Source: a virus. Taken from it: 64,000 nt of DNA. The stretch lies in UHGV virus genome UHGV-0371537; one strand, written 5' to 3'. A program made the position numbers and the translations under genes. Below are positions 22 through 55,013 of the stretch, piece after piece (position 1 is the first letter of the stretch; each line of letters begins with the position of its first letter). Under the pieces are notes generated by a model. The model had not been told where the DNA came from. It saw only the letters and a program-made list of their open reading frames with translations, and ran no database searches.

Positions 22-1626
22 ATGGTCACGAACCAGGAAGAAAAGTTGCTTTCAAAAGCGACTGTTGTTGCGCTGGACGATGCTCAGGATGGTTCCATCA
101 TCCTCCAGGGCGGCGCAAATACATTCAATTTCGTAGGCGTTGAAAGCGAACTCCTCAACGTCAAACAGCTGGTCGAAGAGTACCAGAGCATGGCACAACA
201 GCCTGAGATCCGTAAGGCTGTGGATATCATTGTTAACGACGTCGTCACCTGTGAAGAGGACGAAACTCCCGTATCTATCAACCTGGAAAAGGTAGAGGGC
301 ATCACAGACGACGTCAAAGAGAAGATCACCGAAGCGTTCAAAGAGATCATGCATCTCTTGGACTTCGACAACACTGCCTACCAAAAGATTCGCAAGTGGT
401 ATGTCGAAGGTCGTCAGGCTTATCATGTCGTAGTGGACCCGAAGAACAAGAAAGCGGGTATCGCCAAACTCATCATGATGGATTCTCGTTGTATCCGACC
501 TGTGTATATCGTCCAAAAAGCGATGCGCGACGGTATCGAAGTCATCAATGATGTCAAACTTCAATACTACTACAACCCCAATTACAACCGCAACCAGTTC
601 ACTGGCCAGTCCGGTACATCTCAGAACTTCCAGCCTTCACAGCAAGAACTGGTGTTTGATGACGAGAGCATCGTGTACCTGGACAGTGGTGAAGAGCCAT
701 TGGCGAATGGGGTTGTTCCAAGCCTGTTAAACCCGGCTATTCGTCCCCTGAACAACCTCGTCACAACCGAGGATGCAACGGTCATCTACGCCATCACGCG
801 TGCTCCCGAGAAGCGTGCATTCTATCTCGACGTGGGTACTTTGGGTAAGAAGTCTGCCGAAGAATACATGCAAGCTATGATGGGCAAGTTCAAGAACCGC
901 CTGGCATATGATCGCATCACAGGTAAAGTCGCAGGCAACACGCATCTGATGGGCATCGCAGAGGATTACTGGCTGCCACGTCGTGAAGGACAGAACGCAA
1001 CCGAGATCTCTAACGTCGGTGGTGGTGATCAGCTTGGCCAGATGGATCACGTGAACTATTTCCGTGAGAAGCTGTATGAAGCCCTGATGATCCCGAAAGG
1101 GCGTCTACAAGAGGAAGGGTCCATCAACATCGGTGGTTCCAACCTGGCTGAGATTACTCAGGAAGAACTGCGCTTCAACAAATTCTGCGCCAGTCTGCGT
1201 CGTCGTTATTCAGGTGGTATATTCCTGGAACTTCTGCGTCGTCAGTTGATTCTGAAGAACATCACAGATCAGGCCGATTGGAACGAGAAGATCAAGCCGT
1301 TCGTCAAGTTCGAATTCACGTCCGACAGTTTCATCCGCGAGCAGCAAGAGAACGAAATCTTGGCACAGCGTATGTCAGCTTTGGGACAGATCGAACCGTA
1401 TATTGGCACCATCTTCTCTATCGATTATGCTCAACGCAATCTGCTGCGTATGTCTGATGAAGACATCAAAGATCAGCAAGAGAAGATCGCAAAAGAGAAG
1501 AAAGAAGGCAAATATCCTGAAGTGCAGGCAGATGAATCCGGCGGCTTTGGCGGCGGGGAAGTCAGCCCACTGAAATTCAGACCTAATGTCATCCCAGCGC
1601 CGACCCCGCCTGGTGGTGAAGAATAA
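22..1626 (+). CDS. portal vertex protein (T4 gp20-like); frame is open back to position 1, so the true start may lie upstream of the window
   Basis: 534-aa ORF directly upstream of a T4-order head module (core proteins, gp21, gp22, gp23); size fits portal; assigned by synteny, not motif. Confidence 0.6.
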   Translation: MVTNQEEKLLSKATVVALDDAQDGSIILQGGANTFNFVGVESELLNVKQLVEEYQSMAQQPEIRKAVDIIVNDVVTCEEDETPVSINLEKVEGITDDVKEKITEAFKEIMHLLDFDNTAYQKIRKWYVEGRQAYHVVVDPKNKKAGIAKLIMMDSRCIRPVYIVQKAMRDGIEVINDVKLQYYYNPNYNRNQFTGQSGTSQNFQPSQQELVFDDESIVYLDSGEEPLANGVVPSLLNPAIRPLNNLVTTEDATVIYAITRAPEKRAFYLDVGTLGKKSAEEYMQAMMGKFKNRLAYDRITGKVAGNTHLMGIAEDYWLPRREGQNATEISNVGGGDQLGQMDHVNYFREKLYEALMIPKGRLQEEGSINIGGSNLAEITQEELRFNKFCASLRRRYSGGIFLELLRRQLILKNITDQADWNEKIKPFVKFEFTSDSFIREQQENEILAQRMSALGQIEPYIGTIFSIDYAQRNLLRMSDEDIKDQQEKIAKEKKEGKYPEVQADESGGFGGGEVSPLKFRPNVIPAPTPPGGEE

Positions 1627-1664
1627 TTCGACTAAGTATAGAAAACATTTTAGAGGATACGAAC

Positions 1665-1835
1665 ATGGCCGCTATCGATCTGGTAAAAGCAATCATCGCT
1701 GGTGACACCGATGCAGCTGTAGCTGAGTGTGAAACTGAACTGTCTGCTCGCGCCCAAGAACTGGTACAGCAGGGCACTGCATATGTCATGAACTCTCTGA
1801 GTCAAGACATGAATCCTGTTGACGACGATCAATAA
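1665..1835 (+). CDS. small acidic prohead core protein (gp67-like position)
   Basis: 56-aa ORF MAAIDLVKAI..., RBS GAGGAT 7 nt upstream, between portal and protease as in T4; not in ORF track (<60 aa). Confidence 0.4.
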   Translation: MAAIDLVKAIIAGDTDAAVAECETELSARAQELVQQGTAYVMNSLSQDMNPVDDDQ

Positions 1836-1847
1836 GAGGGTGGTATC

Positions 1848-2153
1848 ATGGAAATCGAAGAAATTGCAACGTTCGCTGATTTCCTGGCTTCCCGCATGGA
1901 CGAGCAGAAAGTCATTGACAAGGTGAACGCGAAAGGTAAACGCCGCCGTCGCCTGCAGTGTGCTCCTGGTTTCAAACTGTCTGCAGACGGTTCCCGTTGT
2001 GAGGTTATGGTCGCCAGTGAGCGCCGGACTCGCAAGCTGGGCAACCGCAAGGCAATTCGAGCCAAGAAACGCATGGGTATGGGCTACCAGCGCAAAATTG
2101 AACGTCGTAAGAAGAAAGCGATGAAGTTCCGTCGTATGATGGGGCTGAGTTAA
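1848..2153 (+). CDS. basic prohead core protein (gp68-like position)
   Basis: 101 aa, Arg/Lys-rich (KGKRRRRLQ, RRKKKAMKFRR), RBS GAGGGTGG; position between gp67-like and gp21-like. Confidence 0.45.
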   Translation: MEIEEIATFADFLASRMDEQKVIDKVNAKGKRRRRLQCAPGFKLSADGSRCEVMVASERRTRKLGNRKAIRAKKRMGMGYQRKIERRKKKAMKFRRMMGLS

Positions 2154-2160
2154 GGAGCGA

Positions 2161-2829
2161 ATGATGAAACTGTTGCGTGAGATCACTGCGATAGGGAAAG
2201 ACCTTCAGATTGGTGAAGCGGCCACGGCGACTGGCGGTAAAGCCATGTACATCGAAGGTCCATTCGTGATGTGTAACCAGGTGAACCGTAATCGTCGCAA
2301 CTACGATCTCCAGAAAGTGGGTATCCCTGCCGTGGAAGCATATGACAGGGAGTACATCCAGGATCGTCGCGCAATCGGTGAACTCAAACATCCGGATTAT
2401 CCTTTCCCTGATATTGAACATGCTGCACTCAAAACCGAATCTTTGCGCTGGGAAGGCACCAACGCTATCGGTCGAGCGCGGATCTTAAATACACCGAAAG
2501 GCCAGATCATTCGTGCTCTGGCTGAAGCAGACTTCAACCTGGCCGTGTCTACACGCGGTCTTGGTGAGACCAAGTCGGTAGACGGTTACGATGACGTCCA
2601 ACCTGGCTTTATGCTCACTGCTGTTGATGCAGTCGACCGTCCTTCTGGACAAGTTTGTTATGTAAAGGCTGTGAGCGAATCTGTTGAATGGCAGCTTGAT
2701 GAATCTTCAGGAATCTGGGTTCCTAAAGACATCAAAGGGCAAGTGGTCGATTCATTGGTGAAAACCAATATTCAGTTCGAAGACGACTTCCTGCGCCGCC
2801 TCGATATCGCATTGAGACATCTGGGCTGA
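2161..2829 (+). CDS. gp21: prohead core protease (T4 gp21-like)
   Basis: 222 aa, RBS AGGAGCGA; position and size match T4 gp21; conserved-looking core GELKHPDYPF; precedes scaffold and capsid. Confidence 0.75.
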   Translation: MMKLLREITAIGKDLQIGEAATATGGKAMYIEGPFVMCNQVNRNRRNYDLQKVGIPAVEAYDREYIQDRRAIGELKHPDYPFPDIEHAALKTESLRWEGTNAIGRARILNTPKGQIIRALAEADFNLAVSTRGLGETKSVDGYDDVQPGFMLTAVDAVDRPSGQVCYVKAVSESVEWQLDESSGIWVPKDIKGQVVDSLVKTNIQFEDDFLRRLDIALRHLG

Positions 2830-2840
2830 ATTCAGCCTCA

Positions 2841-2848
2841 CTAAATAC
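2841..2848 (+). promoter_or_regulatory. candidate late promoter element (CTAAATAC) ahead of the scaffold gene
   Basis: CTAAATAC about 27 nt upstream of ATG 2875; resembles T4-family late -10 (TATAAATA / CTAAATA variant). Confidence 0.35.
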
Positions 2849-2874
2849 TGAAAATCGTTCAGAAGGAAACAATC

Positions 2875-3747
2875 ATGAAACCTGAATTGCAAAAACTGTT
2901 TGAGGGCGTTAACGGCCTCAGCACCGACTTCCTGGATAAAGTGTCTGGCCTGCTGGAATCTAAAGTAGAAGCTGCTCGCCTGACTGCTATCCAAGAAACC
3001 GAAAACGCTGCCAACATTGAGCGTCTGCGTCTTGTTGAAGCTCACCAGTCTGAAATTGCTCAGCTGAAAGAGTCTCACATCCAAGAGCTGGCCATCAAAG
3101 TCGACGGCTTCCTGAACGCCGTTGTAGAAGAGTGGGCTAACAAGAACGCTCCTGCTATCGACGCTCAGATCAAACGTGAAGCGGCTGAAAATCTGCTGAC
3201 TGGTCTGACTGGCGTTCTGAAAGAAGCTGGTATCAACTTCGCTACCGACGAAAACGGCCAGATCGCTGCGCTGACTGCTCGCCTGACCGAAGCTGAACGC
3301 CGTGCGGCTGAAGCTGAAGCAGAAAACCGTCAGATCAAAGAAGCGGCCAATGCGACTCTGCGCGACTCTGTTGTTGCCCGTATCTGTGAAGGTATGGTAG
3401 ACACCAAGAAAGCCACCGTCGTCGGCCTGCTGGAAGCGGTTCAGTTCACCACCGAAAGCGAATTCGCTTCTCGTGTTCAGACCTTCCGTAATCTGGTAGA
3501 AGGTAAGTCTGCCAAGAAAGAAGGTGACGACAACGACGATGACGACTTCAAAGACAAAGTCGGCGGCAAAGACGGCGACGATGACAACAAAGAGTCGAAA
3601 GACAAAGTCGACGAGAGCAAGAAATCCAAGAAAGAAGGCGACGACGACAACGACGACGATGAAGATGATGAAGCTGGTAAAGAGCTGAAAGAATCTATCC
3701 GTCGTCAGCGCGAATTGTATCGTGCGAAGTACAACGTCAACGGCTAA
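2875..3747 (+). CDS. gp22: prohead scaffolding protein (gp22-like)
   Basis: 290 aa, helical/coiled-coil-like with strongly acidic C-terminal tract (DDNDDDDFKDK...DDDNDDDEDDE); immediately upstream of major capsid gene. Confidence 0.7.
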   Translation: MKPELQKLFEGVNGLSTDFLDKVSGLLESKVEAARLTAIQETENAANIERLRLVEAHQSEIAQLKESHIQELAIKVDGFLNAVVEEWANKNAPAIDAQIKREAAENLLTGLTGVLKEAGINFATDENGQIAALTARLTEAERRAAEAEAENRQIKEAANATLRDSVVARICEGMVDTKKATVVGLLEAVQFTTESEFASRVQTFRNLVEGKSAKKEGDDNDDDDFKDKVGGKDGDDDNKESKDKVDESKKSKKEGDDDNDDDEDDEAGKELKESIRRQRELYRAKYNVNG

Positions 3748-3759
3748 TTTTAGCAGCCA

Positions 3760-3785
3760 CAGCCCTCGAAAGGGGGCTTGATTTT
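3760..3785 (+). terminator. rho-independent terminator-like hairpin after scaffold gene
   Basis: AGCCCTC-GAAA-GGGGGCT stem-loop then TGATTTT. Confidence 0.45.
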
Positions 3786-3838
3786 GAACTACTAAGTAAT
3801 TTCAACTTAACTGAATATCAATGTAAGGAATGAGCATC

Positions 3839-5161
3839 ATGGCTAAGAAACTTGTAACCGAAGAAATGCGCAAAGAGTGGCTGCCTGTTCTTCAAAAAGA
3901 ATCTGAACAGATCCAGCCTCTGTCTGCCGAAAACGTCGCTGTCCGTCTCCTGGAAAACCAGGCTGAGTGGAACGCCAAAAACCTGGGTGAATCCGAAGCC
4001 CCTGGCTCTCTGAACAACACTGTCGGTAAATGGCAGCCAGTTCTGATTGACATGGCTAAACGTCTGGCTCCGATCAACATCGCGATGGACTTCTTCGGCG
4101 TTCAGCCGCTGTCTGGTCCTGACGGTCAGATCTTCGCACTGCGTGCTCGCCAGGGCGTTGCAGATAGTTCCAACACCGCGCAGTCTCGTAAAGAACTGTT
4201 CATGCAGGAAGCTGATTCCGGCTACTCTGGTGACGGTACTGTACAGGCTGGCGACCCATCTGGCTTTACCCAGGCTGAAATCGAAGGTTCCGGCGCTGGT
4301 ACAACCACCATCGGTAAAGGTATGCCAAGCACCGACGCTGAACTGCTGGGTACTACCACCAACCCATGGGCGCGTGTTGGTATCACCGTGCAGAAAGCTA
4401 CCGTGACTGCGAAGTCTCGCGGCCTGTACGCTGACTACAGCCATGAGCTGCGCCAGGACATGATGGCGATTCACGGCGAAGACGTGGACAGCATCCTGTC
4501 TGACGTGATGGTCACTGAAATTCAGGCGGAAATGAACCGTGAGTTTATCCGCACCATGAACTTCAGCGCAGTACGCTTCAAAAAATTCGGCGCAAACGGC
4601 ATCGTGGACATCTCCACCGATATCTCCGGTCGTTGGGCTCTGGAAAAATGGAAGTACATGACTTTCATGCTGGAAGTTGAAGCGAACGGTATCGCCGTTG
4701 ACACCCGTCGTGGTAAAGGGAACCGTGTTCTGTGTTCTCCGAACGTAGCATCTGCCCTGGCGATGTCCGGCATGCTGGATTACGCTCCGGCGCTGCAGGA
4801 AAACACCAAGCTGGCGATCGACCCAACTGGCCAGACCTTCGCTGGTGTTCTGTCTAACGGCATGCGCGTTTACATCGACCCGTATGCAGTAGCAGAGTAC
4901 ATCACCCTGGCATACAAAGGCGCGACCGCGCTGGATGCTGGTATCTTCTTCGCGCCGTATGTGCCGCTGGAAATGTACCGCACCCAGGGTGAAACCACCT
5001 TCAGCCCACGTATGGCGTTCAAGACCCGCTACGGGATTTGTGCTAACCCATTCGTTCAGATCCCAGCGAACCAGGATCCACAGGTCTATGTGACTGCGGA
5101 TGGTATCGCCCAGGACAGCAACCCTTACTTCCGTAAAGGGTTAATAAAAGGCCTGTTTTAA
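3839..5161 (+). CDS. gp23: major capsid protein (T4 gp23-like)
   Basis: Aligns to recalled T4 gp23 (FFGVQPLSGPDGQIFALRA, FAGVLSNGMRVYIDPYA, GIFFAPYVPL, FKTRYGI); start moved to ATG 3839 (AAGGA 9 nt upstream). Confidence 0.9.
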   Translation: MAKKLVTEEMRKEWLPVLQKESEQIQPLSAENVAVRLLENQAEWNAKNLGESEAPGSLNNTVGKWQPVLIDMAKRLAPINIAMDFFGVQPLSGPDGQIFALRARQGVADSSNTAQSRKELFMQEADSGYSGDGTVQAGDPSGFTQAEIEGSGAGTTTIGKGMPSTDAELLGTTTNPWARVGITVQKATVTAKSRGLYADYSHELRQDMMAIHGEDVDSILSDVMVTEIQAEMNREFIRTMNFSAVRFKKFGANGIVDISTDISGRWALEKWKYMTFMLEVEANGIAVDTRRGKGNRVLCSPNVASALAMSGMLDYAPALQENTKLAIDPTGQTFAGVLSNGMRVYIDPYAVAEYITLAYKGATALDAGIFFAPYVPLEMYRTQGETTFSPRMAFKTRYGICANPFVQIPANQDPQVYVTADGIAQDSNPYFRKGLIKGLF

Positions 5162-5190
5162 TAATTAAAACAATGGCTTACGTCCTAACA

Positions 5191-5217
5191 AACCCCGCTT
5201 CGGCGGGGTTTTTGTTT
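5191..5217 (+). terminator. rho-independent terminator after major capsid gene
   Basis: AACCCCGC-TTCG-GCGGGGTT then TTTTTGTTTG. Confidence 0.75.
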
Positions 5218-5268
5218 GTTCATAATACCAAACAGGTTATACTAGATACCATACGAAGGAGAACAATT

Positions 5269-6741
5269 ATGTATCAGGTAATCTGTAGTGTCTGTCATGA
5301 ACAGTTCAAAGCATCCAGGAAAGATAAGAAATTTTGTTCAGATGGTTGTAAAACGTTTTCTAGCAACACATTGAAAAATCTATCACCGGAATTTGTTGCT
5401 GATGCGACGTGCCTTTCGGATGAAGAATCTTATCGTCAATTTTTCCATAAACACATGTTCACTAAGAACAATAAATTGGATATTCAGAAATGCAAATCTA
5501 ATTTGTTAATGAAGCACATCAGATTGGACCTGTTGATATTTGCCAACGCCCATAACACCCTACAAGATCTGGCCTGTAAAGTCACAGCATGGTTACACAA
5601 TAGAACCGTGAAAATGTGCCCTGTGTGTTCCAAAGAAACCAACTTTTACATCAATGACAAAGATTACAGAACATATTGTTCCGAAGAATGTTATCAGATT
5701 TCTATGTGTAAAGGCGGGGTTGGTCGGAAAGCTATAGAGGCTTCAAATATATCCAAATATGGGAGCTGCTCTACACTACAACTACCTGGTGTGAGGAAGA
5801 AGGCGTTGATAACATTACAAGAACGTTATGGTGTTGACAATCCCATGAAAAACTCGATCATATTGAAACGTGCATTGTTTAACAATGGTTCTGTCAGGAA
5901 TAAGAAATCTTCTTATGAAAAAGAAATATCCGAGTTCCTCACCTCAATAGGAGTTGTGAACAAGGTTTCTAATTACAGTATATTGTCAGGCAAACAATTG
6001 GATATCTACTGCCCGGAACACAAACTTGCAATAGAATTCAATGGGTTGTACTGGCATTCAGAAGTTTTTAAAGAAAAACGGTATCATCTAGAAAAGACTG
6101 AAATGTGTGAATCTCAGGGTATCCAGTTGATCCATATTTGGGAAGACGAATGGGCTGAGAAACAGGATGTGGTCAAATCTCTTCTGAAGGCAAAACTCGG
6201 CATTAAAACGCCTGTCTCATACGCTCGCCAACATAAAGTTGTTTGGGGTAATATAAACGGTGTGAGGGAGTTTCTAGACGCCCATCATATACAAGGTTCC
6301 GTGTCGTCCACCCACCACTTATCGCTAATTGATAAGGCTGGTGTGATACAGGCCGTGATGTTGTTTACCAAAAGGAAAGATGGCCTGGAATTAGTCAGAT
6401 TTGCCTCTAATGATTGCCACGGGGCGTTCAGTAAACTTCTATCGCACTTCAGAAGGAAATTTGTTGGTGTCCCAATCTATTCTTTTGGCGACAGGTGTGT
6501 CGTAAGCAGGCTGTCGAACATTTACCTATCCCACAGGTTCATAGAAGAGGAAGTACAGAAGCCGGATTACAAATATCACAAGCCTGGTACATTTATGCGT
6601 GAGCACAAGTTCGGTTTCAGAAAAGATTCATTTGCTCGGATGGGTTATGACATAGAAGGCAAAACAGAAAGCCAGTTAGCAACCGAAGCCGGGCTGGTCA
6701 GGATTTGGAATTGTGGTCTGATCAAATATACCTTGAACTAA
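5269..6741 (+). CDS. free-standing homing-endonuclease-like protein: N-terminal CxxC zinc fingers plus PD-(D/E)XK (DUF559/Vsr-like) nuclease core
   Basis: CSVCHEQF, CPVCSKE...CSEECY zinc-finger pairs; LDIYCPEHKLAIEFNGLYWHSE nuclease motif; AAGGAG RBS; sits right after capsid gene where T4 carries segD. Confidence 0.6.
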   Translation: MYQVICSVCHEQFKASRKDKKFCSDGCKTFSSNTLKNLSPEFVADATCLSDEESYRQFFHKHMFTKNNKLDIQKCKSNLLMKHIRLDLLIFANAHNTLQDLACKVTAWLHNRTVKMCPVCSKETNFYINDKDYRTYCSEECYQISMCKGGVGRKAIEASNISKYGSCSTLQLPGVRKKALITLQERYGVDNPMKNSIILKRALFNNGSVRNKKSSYEKEISEFLTSIGVVNKVSNYSILSGKQLDIYCPEHKLAIEFNGLYWHSEVFKEKRYHLEKTEMCESQGIQLIHIWEDEWAEKQDVVKSLLKAKLGIKTPVSYARQHKVVWGNINGVREFLDAHHIQGSVSSTHHLSLIDKAGVIQAVMLFTKRKDGLELVRFASNDCHGAFSKLLSHFRRKFVGVPIYSFGDRCVVSRLSNIYLSHRFIEEEVQKPDYKYHKPGTFMREHKFGFRKDSFARMGYDIEGKTESQLATEAGLVRIWNCGLIKYTLN

Positions 6742-43673: not shown

Positions 43674-43772
43674 GGCTGAAGGGCACTAAATATCACGTGC
43701 CCTTTATCTTTTAACCCCTGTCAGGAGGCTCAATCGAGCTGCAAGTCGACAAACCACATAAGGAACGCCATC

Positions 43773-44387
43773 ATGACGATGACAACGTTGAAGGCCATGG
43801 CCTTGTCCGTGACCTTTACCATTGCCAGCGGGAATGTGCACGCTTCCCAAAATACAAGTCAATGTGTTTATGATTTCTCTGAGCAACAACTTAATACGCT
43901 GGCAACTGCCTATCACATAGGCAAGACACAAGATCTTGGTTACACTCTGGCCGCCATATCTTGGCGAGAGAGCCGCGCTGGTGAAGATGTAGTGTCAATG
44001 CGCTATGGACTCAAGGCGGCCAACATGGGAGCCTTTCAGAACAAGGTGAAGACAGTTGGTGATCGCGAAGGTTGTAAGAATCGCAAGTGCTATGCCAATG
44101 TCGCCATAAAGTTGCTGACCGACCAAGAATATGCCGCGCAAGCCGCCCTCGAAGAGATGCAGTTCTGGCTGACCTATCACAAGCAGAATGTACGCAAATC
44201 CCTCTCCTCTTACAATGCTGGCTTCGCCCGTAATCCCGCATCGAACGCTTATGCCGCTGACGTCGTGAAGAAAGCTAAATATCTTCAGAAATGTGTGTCC
44301 TTCAAAGGCCGGACCATCTCCGAGGTAGATCCTCAGGTGATCGCCATGAACAAGCGCACGATAGAGAAACTGAAGAGGACAAGATAA
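43773..44387 (+). CDS. secreted protein, possible lytic transglycosylase (SLT-like)
   Basis: Signal peptide MTMTTLKAMALSVTFTIASGNVHA; AISWRESRAG...MGAFQ resembles the SLT catalytic E-S...G.MQ region; AAGGA RBS. Confidence 0.45.
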   Translation: MTMTTLKAMALSVTFTIASGNVHASQNTSQCVYDFSEQQLNTLATAYHIGKTQDLGYTLAAISWRESRAGEDVVSMRYGLKAANMGAFQNKVKTVGDREGCKNRKCYANVAIKLLTDQEYAAQAALEEMQFWLTYHKQNVRKSLSSYNAGFARNPASNAYAADVVKKAKYLQKCVSFKGRTISEVDPQVIAMNKRTIEKLKRTR

Positions 44388-45025
44388 TGAACATCACTCC
44401 ATCTCAGACCGGATATGAACATATCTTGGTCTTCATCGCTCTACAGGGCGCGAAGGAAGGCATCATCGTATCCGAGTACTCGGGGACTGTGCGCCTTGCC
44501 GATTACGTCGCACCCGAGGCGTTCATTAAGAAGTGTATTGATGCGTGGTGCCTCTATGCCCTCGGCACGTATCCTGCCCCTCCTGAGGGCGAGCTGTTGT
44601 TTACTGTACCGACTCCGGCTGCTGGCGATACGGACGCGATCTTTGCCGATATGCTGGCCAAGGGGTATCTGGTGTATGATATCACTCACGATGTCTACTC
44701 CTTCACCTCGCTGAACACCGTGTTTGGGTTCACCATCACGTCTGAAGCCAACATCCCTGACTGGGGCATCTTGGCGTGGGGCGTTGACGGCCTGGGCGCA
44801 ACCTATGCATCGTCCGATGTCGGTCCTGTGTTGATTGATGAGGGTGTAACCATGGAGCAGTACCTTGCTCAGTTCCCTCAGCACAATATCACAGGCAGCG
44901 ACATCATTTTAGTTCAGCCTGGTGCTATCGCTCTCCCCCGTTTGGTGGATGGATGGAAGCCTCAGCTGAAGGATATCATCGCCGGGATCAGATTCCATAT
45001 TCCTGTGGTGAACCCAACGCCGTAA
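44387..45025 (+). CDS. hypothetical protein
   Basis: 212 aa from ATG 44387 (TAATG overlap with upstream stop). Confidence 0.45.
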   Translation: MNITPSQTGYEHILVFIALQGAKEGIIVSEYSGTVRLADYVAPEAFIKKCIDAWCLYALGTYPAPPEGELLFTVPTPAAGDTDAIFADMLAKGYLVYDITHDVYSFTSLNTVFGFTITSEANIPDWGILAWGVDGLGATYASSDVGPVLIDEGVTMEQYLAQFPQHNITGSDIILVQPGAIALPRLVDGWKPQLKDIIAGIRFHIPVVNPTP

Positions 45026-45040
45026 AAATAATTCAATAAA

Positions 45041-45065
45041 AGGGGCTTTCGCCCCTTTACTTCTT
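45041..45065 (+). terminator. rho-independent terminator after gene 44387, abutting an early promoter
   Basis: AGGGGC-TTTC-GCCCCT then TTACTTCTT. Confidence 0.6.
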
Positions 45066-45084
45066 CAATATCCTTCCCTATACT
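45056..45084 (+). promoter_or_regulatory. early-type sigma70-like promoter (TTTACT-N17-TATACT)
   Basis: -35 TTTACT 45056-45061, -10 TATACT 45079-45084; downstream TTCATTCCATAAGCAG block also found at 7787-7802. Confidence 0.55.
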
Positions 45085-45132
45085 TCATTCCATAAGCAGT
45101 ACGACACCAACTTGAAACGAAGGAACTATATT

Positions 45133-45492
45133 ATGGCTATCACCACAAAAACTGAATTGAACGCGATCCTGAAAGAAGCTGGCTTCGGTAGTATCAAACG
45201 CCAGGGCAAGGTTTTACGCGATGGCGGTAAAATCGTAAAGGGCATCATGTTGGGAAGTACTGGCCCGTTGAGCATCAGCTCCCCTCAGTATGACAATCTT
45301 CGTAAACTGGCGCGTGAACTTCTCCAAGAAGACCTCCATATCACGACGCAAGAAACCAATTATGTGGTTTTGGAATGCAACAAATTCATCGTCAGCCTTT
45401 ACATCTGCAGCACCCGCTCATATCCGGTGTCTGAAGGTTATGACCCAATGTATCTGACCCATTATGCTCAGGTTACTGTCAAAGCAAAATAA
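45133..45492 (+). CDS. hypothetical protein behind an early-type promoter
   Basis: 119 aa; N-terminus MAITTKTELNAILKEAGFG resembles gene at 51446; promoter TTTACT-N17-TATACT upstream. Confidence 0.5.
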   Translation: MAITTKTELNAILKEAGFGSIKRQGKVLRDGGKIVKGIMLGSTGPLSISSPQYDNLRKLARELLQEDLHITTQETNYVVLECNKFIVSLYICSTRSYPVSEGYDPMYLTHYAQVTVKAK

Positions 45493-45504
45493 TCAAATTC
45501 AACG

Positions 45505-45530
45505 GGGAGCTTCGGCTCCTCTTTTGTTTT
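45505..45530 (+). terminator. rho-independent terminator after gene 45133
   Basis: GGAGC-TTCG-GCTCC then TCTTTTGTTTTCG. Confidence 0.65.
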
Positions 45531-45576
45531 CGCTAATTAAGGAAAACCGCACCGATTTATTATCAGGAGAATTACA

Positions 45577-47565
45577 ATGGCCACCCCATCTTTCTTAAAT
45601 TTCCTTGAAGAGTCTAAACAATTAGACGAAGCGTTCAACTCCGCTCCGTATGAGCTGACCATGGGTAAGAAGAACGCAGGCGATGTGTTCTTCACCTTCA
45701 TCGACGAAGATGAAAAGGAATACCGTATTCAGTTCTATACCCCACAGGGGCTGGGCAAGAACGTTCGTCAGGTCTTCATCGGCCAGAAGCGCGGCTCCGT
45801 CTACCCTGATGCCATCGCTCGCTTCAAAAACCCAATGCGCGTCATCGCCTCCATGATCGAAGCGACCAAGCAGTTCCTGGCGACCCCTCTGGGCAAGACC
45901 ATCGATGGTTATGCTGTCAACTTCTCTAAGAAAGCGCTGGAACGCGGGATGACCCTGATTCCTAAGATCATCCGCCAGTCCGGCCTGAAGCAGAAACTGA
46001 ACGTCATGGACCTGACTTACGCGCCTGTCCCTGACCGTGGTTATGTGTGGTTGGTCCGCAAGGGCAAAGATCCGGCTCAGGTATTCGACGGTCCGAAGAT
46101 GCAGGGCATCACCTGGGATGATCCAGACAAGGTCGGTGACGTTCCGGTTCAGAACAATACCCCAGATGTGGGGACTTCATCTTCTGTTGATGATTCCAAC
46201 GGATGGAAATTAACTTCAAACGGGGATCAGCCTATGTTGATCTGGGTTGGCAAAGAGAGAGGCCGCATGAACACGGCAAATATCGCTCCCCACTACAATG
46301 AGCCAGGCGTGTATGTTGGCGCATACATGAATGAGAAATCTGTGCGTGGGCAAAGTGCTGATTTCATTGCTCGTCAGTTGAAATTACCGCAAGTCCCTAT
46401 CAGTATCCTGAATGATTTCACCACGGCGTCCACAAAATTTTGGAAAGGTTCTCAGCAGAAGTCTGCGCCAGCTGACTCCAACACCACTATTGGTGCTCGG
46501 GGTGTGGGAACTGGGTCTGGTTCTTCTGAAATCGAAATCAACCGCGACTGGTACAACAGCTCAGACACTGGTCTGGTGTTGAAGAGCGGGCGCGACCCGA
46601 TTCGCGGAAACTACACCCGCTTGATGAGCGGTTCGAGAGAAGTAGCCACATTCTATGGCTATGATTTTGACAAATACCCAGACGGAACTGAAGTATCTTG
46701 GAATATGAAGCGCGGCTTCACCAACCAAGACTTGGTCGGTGCGTCCATGACCAAACAGAAGAAAGGCATGTACGATCAGTACACTTTCAAGAAAGGTGCT
46801 CAGTTAATTCTGGTGGTGGACGTTGATACCAGCAACAATACCAACACCCTCAGTTCTAACGACCTAAAAATCCCGCGCAACGCCGAAGTATTCGGTGAAA
46901 CTGGTAGTGGTTTCTCCGTTCGGTGGGCTGTCAATTTCCCCGAAACGGGAAAATATGCCGGTACTTCTATGATAACCAACGTAACCTATTATCATGACAA
47001 AGGCAAAGTTGCATTCACCCCAATTGTCTCTCAGAAAGGGCGTACCCTGAACAATCCGAAGACATATGAACTTCCTTTGAACAAAGATTTGGTCCAGAGT
47101 GTGATTGATGAGATTTCATCAAAAATGGTATATCTTTCCAGAAACCTCCAACAGTTGAAAAGTCAGACATACAACCCAAACCAGGTTTTCTTGAATGATA
47201 TAACCATCACGGATAAAGGTGAAGTGATTTGGAACGATTACAACTTGTCTGACGGCAAAGTTACACAAATTATGCTGTCCATGATAAGCGCAGAAAATAA
47301 ACGCTTGGAGAAAGTGACAAACAGGCCGGATATCACATTACCAAAGAAACAAGCCGAAGTAGTAGAATTTATAAACCGGATGATTGATATTGATCTCGGA
47401 CCTTATTTGAGAGAACCCAAAAAACGTGATGTGGTATTATTCGACTCTTCTGAATTGTCGATAAACCAACTCAACAACATAGAACGCCTGGGAAGAGAAA
47501 CAGGAAAATGGTCTCTTCAGTCAAACGGCGGTATGGGTCATGCACTATTTCTGAATGTTTGGTGA
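45577..47565 (+). CDS. large hypothetical protein with possible capsid-targeting N-terminus (Alt-like position)
   Basis: 662 aa; N-terminus MATPSFLNFLEES resembles T4 internal-protein targeting leaders; no ADP-ribosyltransferase motif confirmed. Confidence 0.5.
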   Translation: MATPSFLNFLEESKQLDEAFNSAPYELTMGKKNAGDVFFTFIDEDEKEYRIQFYTPQGLGKNVRQVFIGQKRGSVYPDAIARFKNPMRVIASMIEATKQFLATPLGKTIDGYAVNFSKKALERGMTLIPKIIRQSGLKQKLNVMDLTYAPVPDRGYVWLVRKGKDPAQVFDGPKMQGITWDDPDKVGDVPVQNNTPDVGTSSSVDDSNGWKLTSNGDQPMLIWVGKERGRMNTANIAPHYNEPGVYVGAYMNEKSVRGQSADFIARQLKLPQVPISILNDFTTASTKFWKGSQQKSAPADSNTTIGARGVGTGSGSSEIEINRDWYNSSDTGLVLKSGRDPIRGNYTRLMSGSREVATFYGYDFDKYPDGTEVSWNMKRGFTNQDLVGASMTKQKKGMYDQYTFKKGAQLILVVDVDTSNNTNTLSSNDLKIPRNAEVFGETGSGFSVRWAVNFPETGKYAGTSMITNVTYYHDKGKVAFTPIVSQKGRTLNNPKTYELPLNKDLVQSVIDEISSKMVYLSRNLQQLKSQTYNPNQVFLNDITITDKGEVIWNDYNLSDGKVTQIMLSMISAENKRLEKVTNRPDITLPKKQAEVVEFINRMIDIDLGPYLREPKKRDVVLFDSSELSINQLNNIERLGRETGKWSLQSNGGMGHALFLNVW

Positions 47566-47637
47566 AACAAGCTGAACTTGAACAGAATAAAGCCCCTCCG
47601 GGGGCTAATTACATCTAAATCCCCGAGGAGAGATCCA

Positions 47638-48210
47638 ATGAAACCTTTTATCGAATATTTTAAAGAGCAAGCTGCACAGCCTCAGACCCATGCTGGTGTC
47701 CAGGGTAAGACCGTATCCATCACCAAGCAAGCTGACGGCACCCAGTGGTGTTCCGGCGCTACCGTGACCCAGATCACTCCTGACAATCAGGCGGATGTCT
47801 ACAACCTGGAGTTAACCAACGGCAACACCATCAAGGTGAAGCTGACCCCAGACCAGACTCACGGTATCTCCCAAGGTCAGGAAGTTGTTGCTGTCCACGA
47901 TGGCTTCGAATTCTTCTTCTTCGGCAAGTCCGCCGACAAAGGCCAGGTGACTGAAGCCTATGCCCAGGAACTGGCGAACATGGACAAGATGATCGGTAAA
48001 GCACTGGGTGTTGGCAAGTCCCGCAAGAGTGGTCGCACTGAGTTCGAATACTCTGGCATCCCTGGCATCGGCAAGGCGATCACCGTGAACTTCGGCGGCG
48101 AAGATGACCCATATGTGATCGTCACCTGCAACGGCAAAGAGCAGGACATCAGCAAGGGTAAAAACCTGGCTGCTGACATTGCCAAGTTCCTCGGTGTTAA
48201 GCCTGTGTAG
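47638..48210 (+). CDS. internal-protein-like head protein candidate
   Basis: 190 aa; N-terminus MKPFIEYFKEQAA resembles T4 IP leader MKTYQEFIAEA; GAGGAGAG RBS. Confidence 0.5.
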   Translation: MKPFIEYFKEQAAQPQTHAGVQGKTVSITKQADGTQWCSGATVTQITPDNQADVYNLELTNGNTIKVKLTPDQTHGISQGQEVVAVHDGFEFFFFGKSADKGQVTEAYAQELANMDKMIGKALGVGKSRKSGRTEFEYSGIPGIGKAITVNFGGEDDPYVIVTCNGKEQDISKGKNLAADIAKFLGVKPV

Positions 48211-48240
48211 AAGGGTGAACTTTGCAACCGGGTGAGTCGT

Positions 48241-48276
48241 AAAATAAACCCCGCTTTTCGCGGGGTTTTGTTATTT
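48241..48276. terminator. bidirectional rho-independent terminator between convergent genes
   Basis: AAAATAAACCCCGC-TTTTC-GCGGGGTTTTGTTATTT; A-run on one side, T-run on the other. Confidence 0.75.
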
Positions 48277-48876
48277 CACATACATACTGACTTGTACTTT
48301 CTTACCTTTTTCGTTTTTGACGTCCATCAGCTTGGATGCACCATTCAGTTTCATGACGGTTCCGCGTTCTTTGCCGCCATTCGGTAACTCGTATTCAATA
48401 TCTTCCCCAGGAGATGGCATACCCGCATGAGGTCCCATAACCATGGCGATCTTATAACGAGCCAAGCCGGGGCGACCGCCTTTATACGCATACCAACCAC
48501 CTTCAGTCATTTCTTTCCATTGCTTGTTACCGTCAATGGAGATAAAGGAATTGCCCATACCTGATTTGACATCCAACAAGTCAATATATTTGCCTGATTT
48601 GTTGTACTTGACAGCGGTGTCAGTATCAACCTTGTCAATCATCTGGGCGCTGGCAAACTGTCCATCTTTCAATCCAGATGCTGAGATGATGTCTTTGGCA
48701 TTGGCCAGGATTATCTTGCGACCGTCAGGGGTTTCAAAGGTGGCTTTGTCGCCACTAACACTAACTCGCAAGAAAGTGCCGATATTGTCTTCGGTGGACT
48801 TGCCGATCTTGTCTGACTTGATATGAACAGACATCGGTGGCGCGGCTTCGGTCAAAAAGTCTTGAAAAGTTTTCAT
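48271..48876 (-). CDS. internal-protein-like head protein candidate (minus strand)
   Basis: 201 aa; N-terminus MKTFQDFLTEAA closely matches T4 IP leader MKTYQEFIAEA; GGAG RBS; convergent with 47638 gene. Confidence 0.55.
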   Translation of the reverse strand: MKTFQDFLTEAAPPMSVHIKSDKIGKSTEDNIGTFLRVSVSGDKATFETPDGRKIILANAKDIISASGLKDGQFASAQMIDKVDTDTAVKYNKSGKYIDLLDVKSGMGNSFISIDGNKQWKEMTEGGWYAYKGGRPGLARYKIAMVMGPHAGMPSPGEDIEYELPNGGKERGTVMKLNGASKLMDVKNEKGKKVQVSMYVK

Positions 48877-48965
48877 TTTCGTTCTCCAGTTATATTATTC
48901 TATATAGTACCTCATGGACCCATTAACACTAAATACTAGATGGTTCACAATACAGGAAACAAATC

Positions 48966-49319
48966 ATGGTTAACGCGAGTATTTTCATCAACCGTGGACT
49001 GCTTGCTATAGCCCACTCTCATGCCCTGCACTTCGTTACAACGTCCTATGCCAAGCACAAAGCTCTCGGGGAGTTCTACGGGGAACTGGAGGACTTGCTG
49101 GACACGTTTACCGAAGCATACATCGGTGCGGGTGGCCAGTACGTTCCGTCGTTTGAGAACATCAAGCTCTATAACCCAGACCCTATCTCCTATGTCAACA
49201 GCGTGGTGATAGACGTCGATGGCATCTACAGGCAGTGCGACTCCCACCTTCAGAACACGCTTGATGAAATCAAGACGCTGTGCTATCAGACGATCTACAA
49301 ACTGAAGCAGCTGTCGTAA
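48966..49319 (+). CDS. hypothetical protein
   Basis: 117 aa, AGGAAACA RBS. Confidence 0.45.
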   Translation: MVNASIFINRGLLAIAHSHALHFVTTSYAKHKALGEFYGELEDLLDTFTEAYIGAGGQYVPSFENIKLYNPDPISYVNSVVIDVDGIYRQCDSHLQNTLDEIKTLCYQTIYKLKQLS

Positions 49320-49376
49320 GTCAATACGAAATAAAGGCATATAATTTTGCTCATTATTCACCGAAAGGAAAGGACA

Positions 49377-49988
49377 ATGAGCAAAATCTTTACCCCGACA
49401 CATCGTGAAGGATGTGAGATCGCGGCCAACTACCTGCGCGGTCGCATGAACTGCGGCGCAGTCTTCATCGAACCAAACTCCTTCGACAACAAAGAATCGC
49501 CAGATGCCATCGGGTTTCGTTCAGGCGGGTGCTCTGTCCTGATGGAAGTGAAGGTGTCCCGCGCCGACTTCCTCACCGACAAGAAGAAGCCCCATCGGAT
49601 GGACCCCACAACAGGGATGGGCGCATACCGCTTTTATGTCTGCCCTCAGGATGTGATCAGGGTTGAAGACCTGCCACCAAAGTGGGGGTTGTTCTACTTC
49701 ACACCTCGCAAGTCCCTGATGCCCGTTCATGTGCCGGACATGCAATACTCCTCGTTGTCATCACCAGAGCATTATCAGAAGTATCTTGATGAACAGATCA
49801 AGAGAGGAAGAACCGTCACCCGGCATATGCGCAGCTACATGGAACTTCTCGACGGCTTCGCCCACTTTGAGCGCAACACGGCTGGAGAACAGAATATCCT
49901 GTATGGGGCTTGGCGGCAACTGTGTATAGCTCAAAGTCGTGGTGTAGACTATACTGTGACCGAAGTGTTCCAGAGGCCGAAGATCTAA
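49377..49988 (+). CDS. hypothetical protein, possible PD-(D/E)XK nuclease fold
   Basis: 203 aa; PDAIGF...CSVLMEVKVSRADF fits a D...E-V-K nuclease core; weak call. Confidence 0.4.
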   Translation: MSKIFTPTHREGCEIAANYLRGRMNCGAVFIEPNSFDNKESPDAIGFRSGGCSVLMEVKVSRADFLTDKKKPHRMDPTTGMGAYRFYVCPQDVIRVEDLPPKWGLFYFTPRKSLMPVHVPDMQYSSLSSPEHYQKYLDEQIKRGRTVTRHMRSYMELLDGFAHFERNTAGEQNILYGAWRQLCIAQSRGVDYTVTEVFQRPKI

Positions 49989-54353: not shown

Positions 54354-55013
54354 ATGAATTATCAAAATATCTATGACTCTCTGATACAAAGAGCCAAGAC
54401 CCGTTCATTGGTTGGTTATTCTGAAACCCACCATATTATCCCTAGATGTATGGGAGGGAAAGATGACAAACATAATCTGGTGGAGTTGACACCAGAAGAA
54501 CATTATTTAGCACATCAATTGTTAGTCAAAATATATCCCAAAAATTTCAAATTAGCATTTGCAGCTAATGCTATGTGCGTAAACAATGAATTCTCCGGTA
54601 GATCTTGTAACAAATTATTCGGTTGGTTGCGGAGAAAACTTTCTCATTCCAATAAACAGATGTACAAAGACAACCCTAATTTGAGGAAAATTCGTTCCGA
54701 TCAAATGAAACAGACACATGTAAAGTATTCTCATTTGCGGGAAATACAGTCTAAACGTTTGAAGGAAAACAATATATGCGTGATAAAACAACCTTGGGAA
54801 AGTAACCATGCCACCAAAGAGTCTTTGGATATATGGAAACGCGCCGACGAATATTATGATTGGTGGTTGTGCAACCAAAAAGGTTGCACGTTCATGGCGA
54901 AAGCGTTTGGGTTCAAAAACAAGACGACTCCGCATTTCACAATGATTAATAAATTTAAATCTGGGTGGAATCCCAAAGCCGACCCAGAGTGGTTAGAGTT
55001 TGTAAGTCAATAA
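54354..55013 (+). CDS. HNH family homing endonuclease (mob-like)
   Basis: YSETHHIIPRCMGGKDDKHNLVELTPEEHYLAH (HNH); inserted between phoH and nrdA; C-terminal NKFKSGWNP motif shared with two other endonucleases. Confidence 0.75.
   Translation: MNYQNIYDSLIQRAKTRSLVGYSETHHIIPRCMGGKDDKHNLVELTPEEHYLAHQLLVKIYPKNFKLAFAANAMCVNNEFSGRSCNKLFGWLRRKLSHSNKQMYKDNPNLRKIRSDQMKQTHVKYSHLREIQSKRLKENNICVIKQPWESNHATKESLDIWKRADEYYDWWLCNQKGCTFMAKAFGFKNKTTPHFTMINKFKSGWNPKADPEWLEFVSQ

Follow-up and report, generated by a model that had tools for sequence, protein, structure and literature searches.

Capsid-targeting-like leader peptides on three adjacent genes of an Ackermannviridae phage: candidate head-internal virion proteins

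The locus and its leader peptides

The virus genome stretch UHGV-0371537, a DNA of 64,000 nucleotides (the window), contains three adjacent genes whose products of 662, 190, and 201 amino acids (aa) begin with short leaders resembling the capsid-targeting sequence (CTS) of phage T4. By megablast, the region 45000-49500 matched 261 phage records, all of them Vi01-like Ackermannviridae; Salmonella, Klebsiella, Escherichia, Dickeya, and Shigella are named as hosts, and the nearest relatives are SW16-7, SKML-39, Gloob, and MK-13. The source of the window is an Agtrevirus-like Ackermannviridae phage. The three open reading frames (ORFs) are located exactly where the initial annotation had put them and have the N-termini given there, each with an ATG start codon and a Shine-Dalgarno sequence. 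The features of the locus are as follows (here and below, an arrow denotes the putative cleavage position):

45577-47565, plus strand: 662-aa gene; N-terminus MATPSFLNFLEES; ATG, Shine-Dalgarno AGGAG
45577-45630, plus strand: predicted 18-residue propeptide of the 662-aa protein, MATPSFLNFLEESKQLDE; CTS-like residues F6, F9, L10, and E12; site LDE18↓AFNS
45631-46176, plus strand: Alt-N-like domain of the 662-aa protein, about residues 19-200
47332-47562, plus strand: C-terminal module D of the 662-aa protein, about residues 586-662
47638-48210, plus strand: 190-aa gene; N-terminus MKPFIEYFKEQAA; ATG, Shine-Dalgarno GAGGAG
48246-48268: G+C-rich hairpin between the convergent 190-aa and 201-aa genes; stem of 9 bp with 6 G-C pairs, T-run
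48271-48876, minus strand: 201-aa gene; N-terminus MKTFQDFLTEAA; ATG, Shine-Dalgarno TGGAG

The CTS of T4 reads MKTYQEFIAE (PMC8442874), and T4 genetics assigns its residues 4 and 7 to targeting and its residues 8 and 10 to processing (PMC9026906). The leader of the 201-aa protein, MKTFQDFLTE↓AA (48847-48876, minus strand), is identical to it at six of the ten positions and carries conservative exchanges at the other four; the leader of the 190-aa protein, equally of ten residues, is MKPFIEYFKE↓QAA (47638-47667). The targeting aromatics are found as F4/F7 in the 201-aa protein, as F4/Y7 in the 190-aa protein and, offset by two positions, as F6/F9 in the 662-aa protein. A motif of the kind associated with the T4 prohead protease gp21 is seen as L-T-E10↓A in the 201-aa protein and as L-E-E12↓S and L-D-E18↓A in the 662-aa protein, the corresponding segment of the 190-aa protein being F-K-E10↓Q.

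When all 1845 candidate starts in the window were scored over their first 11 residues against MKTYQEFIAEA with BLOSUM62, the start of the 201-aa gene ranked first with a score of 42 (mean -2.8, standard deviation 6.5; next best score 27), and that of the 190-aa gene was joint fourth. Of 2234 candidate starts in the window, four match a pattern encoding the critical CTS positions, ^M.{1,5}[FYW]..[FYW][LIMFV].E; these are the starts of the adjacent 662-, 190-, and 201-aa genes and an internal TTG without ribosome-binding site. In the complete Gloob genome, 11 of 5680 starts match. Four of them are genuine starts of adjacent genes at this locus, four belong to gp174 (three nested starts) and gp182 (its start), and three are internal and lack a Shine-Dalgarno sequence. 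The likeness to the T4 CTS that had been claimed for all three leaders is confirmed as real, non-random, and far beyond chance, the residues that are key in T4 (aromatics, aliphatic residue, and Glu10) being kept. For the 662-aa protein this holds with a modification; its leader is CTS-like, but it is offset by two residues, and the best-supported cleavage site is LDE18↓AFNS, not FLEE12↓S.

The two small genes had also been described as converging on a bidirectional terminator. The convergence and the hairpin at 48246-48268 were both found, but the terminator scan scored the hairpin on the plus strand only. Because T-rich runs flank the stem on both strands, bidirectional use is plausible, and the hairpin is likely to serve as a shared terminator of the 190-aa and 201-aa genes.

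The 662-aa protein and its Alt-like N-terminal domain

In the 662-aa precursor, the leader and a conserved N-domain are followed by the shuffled middle modules (A and B), by module C, which is conserved, and by a C-terminal module D that is optional. Its close homologues range from 541 to 1105 aa; the N-domain (residues 15-192) is almost invariant among them and module C is conserved, with modules being absent, duplicated, or reordered to give the orders NAC, NACD, NBAC, NABCD, NABAC, and others. In 25 close homologues M1, F6, L7, F9, and E12 are invariant while the residues in between vary, from which it follows that selection acts on the leader peptide. When 1.84 billion representative proteins (clusters grouped at 50% identity) were searched with HMMER without filters, 92 clusters were returned. 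In about 80 of these, proteins of 300-1600 aa have the Alt-N-like domain at their N-terminal end; the remaining ones are short proteins or fragments whose match lies elsewhere in the 662-aa protein.

Across 60 diverse family members, Met1 and Glu18 are the only invariant residues. The leaders are of variable length, mostly 6-21 residues, and many are CTS-like, examples being MSNFKGFLKE..., MLNFQEFQELNE↓, and MALFKQLVE.... Aligned at the predicted cleavage site, 83 members have Leu or Ile at P3 in 73 cases, Glu at P1 in 81, and Ala or Ser at P1' in 79, followed by F-[ND]-[ST]; judged by its residues, this logo is that of T4 gp21 specificity.

T4 Alt is a packaged and injected ADP-ribosyltransferase (ART) acting on RNA polymerase; it consists of an N-domain (PF26846) and the ART domain PF03496. 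The latter domain was detected in 5 of the 60 distant members of the 662-aa family, one of which (P0191) matches T4 Alt in both domains by phmmer, and therefore homology to the N-terminal part of Alt was tested. Record X15811, the source of the Alt sequence used, annotates the removal of six residues. Single-sequence comparison with T4 Alt gave a weak result (hmmsearch 7.7 bits, hhalign probability 1.9%). The hhalign probability was 60% with a four-sequence Alt profile and 92.1% (E 6.1e-7) with a ten-sequence Alt-N profile to which IMG/VR loci had been added, our own profile being used in place of the PF26846 hidden Markov model and T4 Alt itself matching only PF03496 in the Pfam set employed. 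Reversed and ten column-shuffled Alt profiles, used as controls, did not exceed a probability of 0.5%. The alignment places residues 13-193 of the 662-aa protein collinear with Alt residues 1-195 over some 175 columns, with LDE18↓AFNS lying on L(N/T)E↓(V/L)FDE, so that the E18 site of the family coincides with the annotated Alt cleavage after residue 6. By these profile comparisons, the N-domain is regarded as homologous to that of T4 Alt, and it would be a head-incorporation or anchoring domain.

An ADP-ribosyltransferase fold, to which the initial annotation had pointed for this protein, is absent and occurs in the distant members only. The 662-aa protein gave no Pfam match at all, to an ART domain or otherwise, and phmmer with Alt did not report it. 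As far as can be judged from these searches, the protein is an Alt delivery domain without the Alt-type enzyme. It further resembles Alt in length (662 versus 682 aa), in the homologous N-domain of about 180 residues, in the short predicted propeptide ending at an L/I-x-E site, and in that some of its distant relatives possess the same C-terminal ART domain. It differs from Alt in that beta-rich modules, shuffled and duplicated from phage to phage, make up its C-terminal two thirds, in that its leader has 18 instead of six residues and displays an internal-protein-type CTS-like motif, and in that its orthologues appear to be much more abundant in virions.

Module D is similar to small phage proteins that stand alone and carry the annotation internal head protein. 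The family phrog_7673, which bears that annotation, matches residues 586-644 (E 2e-8), and stand-alone phage proteins of 74-88 aa match residues 588-660. The AlphaFold2 model of the 662-aa protein was poor (pLDDT 52), and its Foldseek comparison with the PDB returned nothing below E 0.07; GNAT-like Foldseek matches of the model were weak and were disregarded as meaningless.

In Vibrio phage K475, a distant, Ackermannviridae-like phage (L026:2128-8456), two paralogues of the Alt-N family, genes 0038 and 0040, lie adjacent to each other. They are followed by gene 0042, in which the leader MASFKLIFE↓A precedes a PF18823 InPase domain (E 2.7e-35); gene 0041 contains a weak Tpt1/KptA-like "VYHGT" motif.

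Small leader proteins, virion content, and head machinery

The 190-aa protein, which matches phrog_4048 and is present in 277 phage records, is a core Ackermannviridae virion protein. Some of these records match its N-terminal half only (about 100-107 aa); this half is conserved, and its C-terminal half is therefore variable. The family leader is MKPF[IL][EQ]YF[KN]E↓QAAQ in enterobacterial phages and takes the canonical form MKKFSEFLIE↓QAAQ in a Serratia phage. Position 8 of the leader in the window is Phe, so its cleavage is less certain than its targeting. The Pfam match of the 190-aa protein to TOBE is sub-threshold (E 0.0096; 16.6 bits versus a gathering score of 22.3 bits), with no stretch passing by itself, and searches of NCBIfam and of PDB sequences for a TOBE or BiMOP domain gave no match.

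The 201-aa protein is a rare, swappable accessory member. Its gene was found in 15 phage records, the region being carried by 261 Ackermannviridae records, and its homologues make up five clusters among 5.8 billion proteins. Behind the leader, in which M1, K2, F4, L8, E10, and A11 are invariant among homologues of 60-98% identity, its body is built of small Tudor/SH3/KOW-like beta-barrels. Most relatives have a small plus-strand gene in the slot between the 190-aa gene and the DUF5856 gene, and its leaders are of the same kind, for example MKGFPDFLKE↓AKVDH in gp216 of Sajous1, MKGFKDFLAE↓AK in the corresponding SKML-39 protein, and MKSFGDYLLKE↓R in that of Serratia phage 2050H1. The C-terminal barrel of the slot protein resembles that of the 201-aa protein (E 7e-5). 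Gloob carries both, a 160-aa slot gene and the 201-aa gene. The former, gp90 (L006:11945-12427, minus strand; leader MKGFQDFLTE↓VK), is located between the 190-aa and 201-aa homologues and encodes a leader, an extra domain, and a gp216-type C-terminal barrel; since it is absent from the window, the slot evidently gains and loses leader genes. This variable slot recalls the polymorphic internal-protein loci of T-even phages.

Two further Gloob proteins possess leaders of this kind. Gp182 (152 aa; L007:45160-45618), encoded outside the genome part covered by the window, is labelled "N-acetyltransferase"; it is in reality a PF18760 ART-PolyVal protein (E 7.8e-12, above the Pfam cutoff) with the leader MKTFLQYLQE↓SEH, and is as such a strong candidate for an enzyme that is packaged in the head and injected. 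Gp174 (L007:40806-41003, in the tRNA region) is a 65-aa ORF whose N-terminus MKTFGDFIAE↓WDG is nearly identical to the T4 CTS; its annotated start lies 27 nucleotides upstream, and a weak DUF2188 match was its only hit.

According to published proteomics, purified virions contain orthologues of both the 662-aa and the 190-aa protein, in agreement with the virion location that had been proposed. In LIMEstone1, ORF078, ORF080, ORF081, ORF082, and ORF085 were identified by mass spectrometry as virion proteins "of unknown function", all five having structural counterparts in ViI, and the orthologue of the 662-aa protein reached 55% coverage with 23 unique peptides (PMC3296691). They correspond to DUF5856 (ORF078), the 190-aa protein (ORF080), the 662-aa protein (ORF081 and ORF082), and DUF7270 (ORF085). 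In CsCl-purified Sajous1, gp214, gp215, gp216, and gp217 were represented by 196, 32, 20, and 10 spectra, respectively, with gp214 among the five most represented virion proteins (PMC10892097). Our mapping confirmed gp214 as the 662-aa protein, gp215 as the 190-aa protein, gp216 as the slot family related to the 201-aa protein, and gp217 as DUF5856. For none of these proteins does the EspM4VN paper give N-terminal data. In LIMEstone1, the annotation divides the orthologue of the 662-aa protein between two overlapping ORFs, ORF082 and ORF081 (163 and 375 aa; L025:2848-4444), both present in virions; the division could reflect a frameshift, an error in the sequence, or a true split of the gene.

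The beginning of the window (22-5161) is occupied by a T4-type head module:

22-1626: gp20 portal
1665-2153: gp67- and gp68-like core proteins
2161-2829, plus strand: prohead protease of the T4 gp21 family (Pfam Peptidase_S77, E 3.6e-29)
2875-3747, plus strand: prohead scaffold of the T4 gp22 family (Pfam T4_CASP, E 1.1e-43)
3830-5161: gp23 major capsid protein

The phage therefore owns the T4 machinery that reads capsid-targeting sequences. The S77 protease is the predicted remover of the leaders and the gp22-type scaffold their predicted docking partner, by analogy with T4. An I-G-E19 site is contained in the N-terminus of the protease itself, and the scaffold has 13 [LIM]-x-E sites within 290 aa. 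Cleavage of the leaders, as put forward in the initial annotation, is in keeping with the S77 gene in the window and with the L-x-E motifs of the 201-aa and 662-aa proteins; the 190-aa protein has F-K-E in place of the canonical motif. Leader-like segments were also noticed in the core, namely the scaffold N-terminus MKPELQKLFE↓G (2875-2910, plus strand) and ATFADFLAS within the gp68-like core protein (1848-1910, plus strand); their resemblance to the leaders fits a leader-core interaction via like-with-like helices. Directly 3' of the major capsid gene, a 522-aa ORF (5173-6741, plus strand) shows weak endonuclease-type matches (MTES_1575, DUF559); it probably represents a homing endonuclease of the free-standing type that has inserted into the head module.

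The exact T4 late promoter TATAAATA occurs twice in the window, in neither case at this locus; in LIMEstone1 a perfect copy lies just upstream of ORF080, the orthologue of the 190-aa gene. The heptamer CTAAATA is found eight times in the window (3.35 expected), at 2841, 9187, 12369, 43686, 44275, 48929, and 58432 on the plus strand and at 54504 on the minus strand. Most copies lie 30-90 nucleotides upstream of virion genes (scaffold, DUF7217, SLT-like gene, and DUF5856), and CTAAATA is probably this phage's variant of TATAAATA. The copies at 43686, 44275, and 48929 belong to the present locus, but none stands immediately upstream of the 662-aa or the 201-aa gene.

The three leader genes share their virion-protein gene cluster with two genes whose products have no leader:

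44387-45025, plus strand: DUF7270 virion protein (Pfam E 1.4e-113)
48966-49319, plus strand: DUF5856 virion protein, ferritin/Dps-like (Pfam E 8.8e-30)

Adjacent to the former, a 204-aa protein (43773-44387, plus strand) has a signal-peptide-like N-terminus and a borderline match to SLT lytic transglycosylases (E 2e-4); the label "RegB" that its counterparts bear in several relatives is probably wrong. Paralogy of the 119-aa (45133) and 162-aa (51446) ORFs was rejected, no similarity being found.

Interpretation and competing explanations

Summarizing, the products of the three genes are probably precursors of virion proteins that reside inside the head of an Ackermannviridae phage and are loaded by the T4-type route. 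During prohead assembly, the N-terminal leader would dock the precursor to the gp22-type scaffold core. The S77 protease would then cut after the Glu of L/I-x-E, that is, at E10 of the 201-aa and the 190-aa proteins and at E18, perhaps also at E12, of the 662-aa protein. Cleavage would give the N-termini AFNSAPYELTMGK, QAAQPQTHAGVQGK, and AAPPMSVHIK, and the N-terminal peptides of uncleaved proteins would be MKPFIEYFK and TFQDFLTEAAPPMSVHIK. The mature protein would stay in the DNA-filled head and leave it together with the DNA at infection.

The analogy with the T4 internal proteins extends beyond the ten-residue leader with Lys2, aromatics at positions 4 and 7, an aliphatic residue at position 8, and Glu10. 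The same genome codes for a protease of the gp21 family and a scaffold of the gp22 family, diverse and unrelated mature parts stand behind a conserved leader, the locus is variable, and the mature 201-aa protein is basic (predicted pI 9.3, 20.6 kDa). Unlike in T4, there is no sequence similarity to mature IPI, IPII, or IPIII, the phage belongs to the Ackermannviridae and not to the Straboviridae, and the 662-aa protein, although basic in its predicted mature form (pI 9.2), is at 72 kDa far larger than any T4 internal protein.

Several points weigh against the proposed loading route. Head as opposed to tail location, cleavage, injection, and action on the host are what we infer from T4 (PMC9026906, PMC5694885, PMC3012670). 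The leader of the 190-aa protein ends in F-K-E instead of L/I-x-E, and the mature protein would be mildly acidic (pI 5.9), unlike T4 internal proteins. Virion proteomics covers orthologues of the 662-aa and 190-aa proteins, not of the 201-aa protein. The window has no recognizable late promoter directly upstream of the 662-aa or the 201-aa gene. The homology to Alt is derived from the comparison of profiles, of which that of Alt was shallow (10 sequences, effective number of sequences about 2). Finally, an enzymatic or anti-restriction domain, which would have suited the injected effectors envisaged in the initial annotation, was detected in none of the three proteins with Pfam, PHROGs, NCBIfam, PADLOC, and PDB sequences; phrog_7673 and the sub-threshold TOBE match were the only functional matches. 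On the whole, the original observation stands, and its interpretation is supported in part, by the leaders, the protease and scaffold, the virion orthologues, and the Alt-N domain, but not by enzyme domains.

To regard the proteins as candidate injected effectors is a reasonable hypothesis, with a structural or DNA-associated role equally open. An effector role is favoured by the module shuffling of the 662-aa protein, by the sporadic 201-aa gene, and by the occurrence of the same leader or N-domain on enzymes of relatives, and a structural or DNA-related role by high abundance, core conservation, and the lack of a recognizable enzyme fold. The proteins might thus be loaded as proposed and serve core assembly, DNA condensation, or ejection mechanics instead of being directed at the host; as an alternative to the above reading this is considered rather unlikely. 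It would accord with the missing enzymatic or inhibitor fold, with the status of the 662-aa and 190-aa genes as core genes of the family, and with the basic nature of two of the mature proteins. Furthermore, T4 contains about 1000 copies of internal proteins in all per head and about 40 of Alt (PMC5694885), and the abundance of the 662-aa orthologues (196 spectra in Sajous1, 55% coverage in LIMEstone1) is closer to that of the internal proteins. On the other hand, the shuffled modules and the sporadic 201-aa gene look like arms-race diversification, ART and other enzymes are placed behind the same N-domain or leader in family members or relatives, and T4 IPI is a small, enzyme-free protein and yet an anti-restriction inhibitor (PMC3012670).

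For Sajous1, gp214-217 have been interpreted as an iron-binding tail operon ("Ferrojan horse", tail completion), on the basis of Phyre2 matches of gp215 to BiMOP (63% confidence) and of gp217 to ferritin (96.7%) (PMC10892097); the sub-threshold TOBE match of the 190-aa protein and the ferritin/Dps-like DUF5856 would be compatible with it. Infectivity was, however, not lost on TonB- or FeoB-deficient hosts (PMC10892097), the labels "tail completion" and "helicase" stem from annotation or from low-confidence matches (27%), and the TOBE match falls below the Pfam threshold. Three to four genes with T4-type head-targeting leaders, together with the Alt-N-like gp214, would be unexpected for tail proteins, and this explanation is considered highly improbable. 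Equally improbable is that a mobile translation-start or recombination cassette has left the shared N-termini as a side effect, or that these are chance amphipathic helices, with any virion entry by unrelated routes: T4-like phages are known to shuffle genes via conserved promoter/terminator cassettes (PMC4122927), and the slot beside the 190-aa gene is clearly recombinogenic, but amino acid conservation is position-specific and falls exactly on the T4-critical residues while others vary, the motif is almost absent from the other approximately 5700 candidate starts of the whole Gloob genome, and the invariant Glu stands in a protease-type logo at variable distance from Met1.

Returning to head-internal loading by the T4-type route, its wider extension is tentative and would be doubtful as a whole. 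The Alt-N domain and the CTS-like leader may constitute a general cargo-loading platform of Ackermannviridae and relatives, whose payloads (ART, pyrophosphatase-like domains, and beta-modules) would be co-injected; the shuffled modules of the 662-aa protein and the 201-aa protein would be counter-defence factors like T4 IPI*, and the slot would be an arms-race hotspot. Such an arrangement of a conserved delivery part with interchangeable cargo is reminiscent of the polyvalent or polymorphic effectors that are co-delivered with DNA by phages and conjugative elements, and the ART-PolyVal and InPase domains, defined in Pfam from polyvalent effectors, are found behind the same leader in related phages. 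It differs from these effectors in that the cargo domains in the window are not recognizable enzymes and in that delivery would follow the T4 prohead-core route instead of using a giant multidomain protein.

In the literature searched, no paper links capsid targeting or internal proteins with Ackermannviridae, and a 2024 review of the family mentions neither internal proteins nor prohead processing. With the reading favoured here, four "unknown structural proteins" of Ackermannviridae that have been verified by mass spectrometry gain a concrete, testable assignment, which conflicts with the published tail completion/Ferrojan horse reading. Specific candidates for injected anti-defence or host-modifying proteins can be named for phages that are widely used in the biocontrol and diagnostics of Salmonella, E. 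coli O157, Klebsiella, and Dickeya. Fusion to a ten-residue leader could load a foreign protein into Ackermannviridae heads, as has been done in T4, and would thus provide an engineering handle. A large uncharacterized Alt-N-like family (about 80 of the 92 clusters) is brought to light, and the known T4 mechanism, comprising CTS- and gp21-dependent loading as well as the Alt delivery domain, would reach beyond the Straboviridae.

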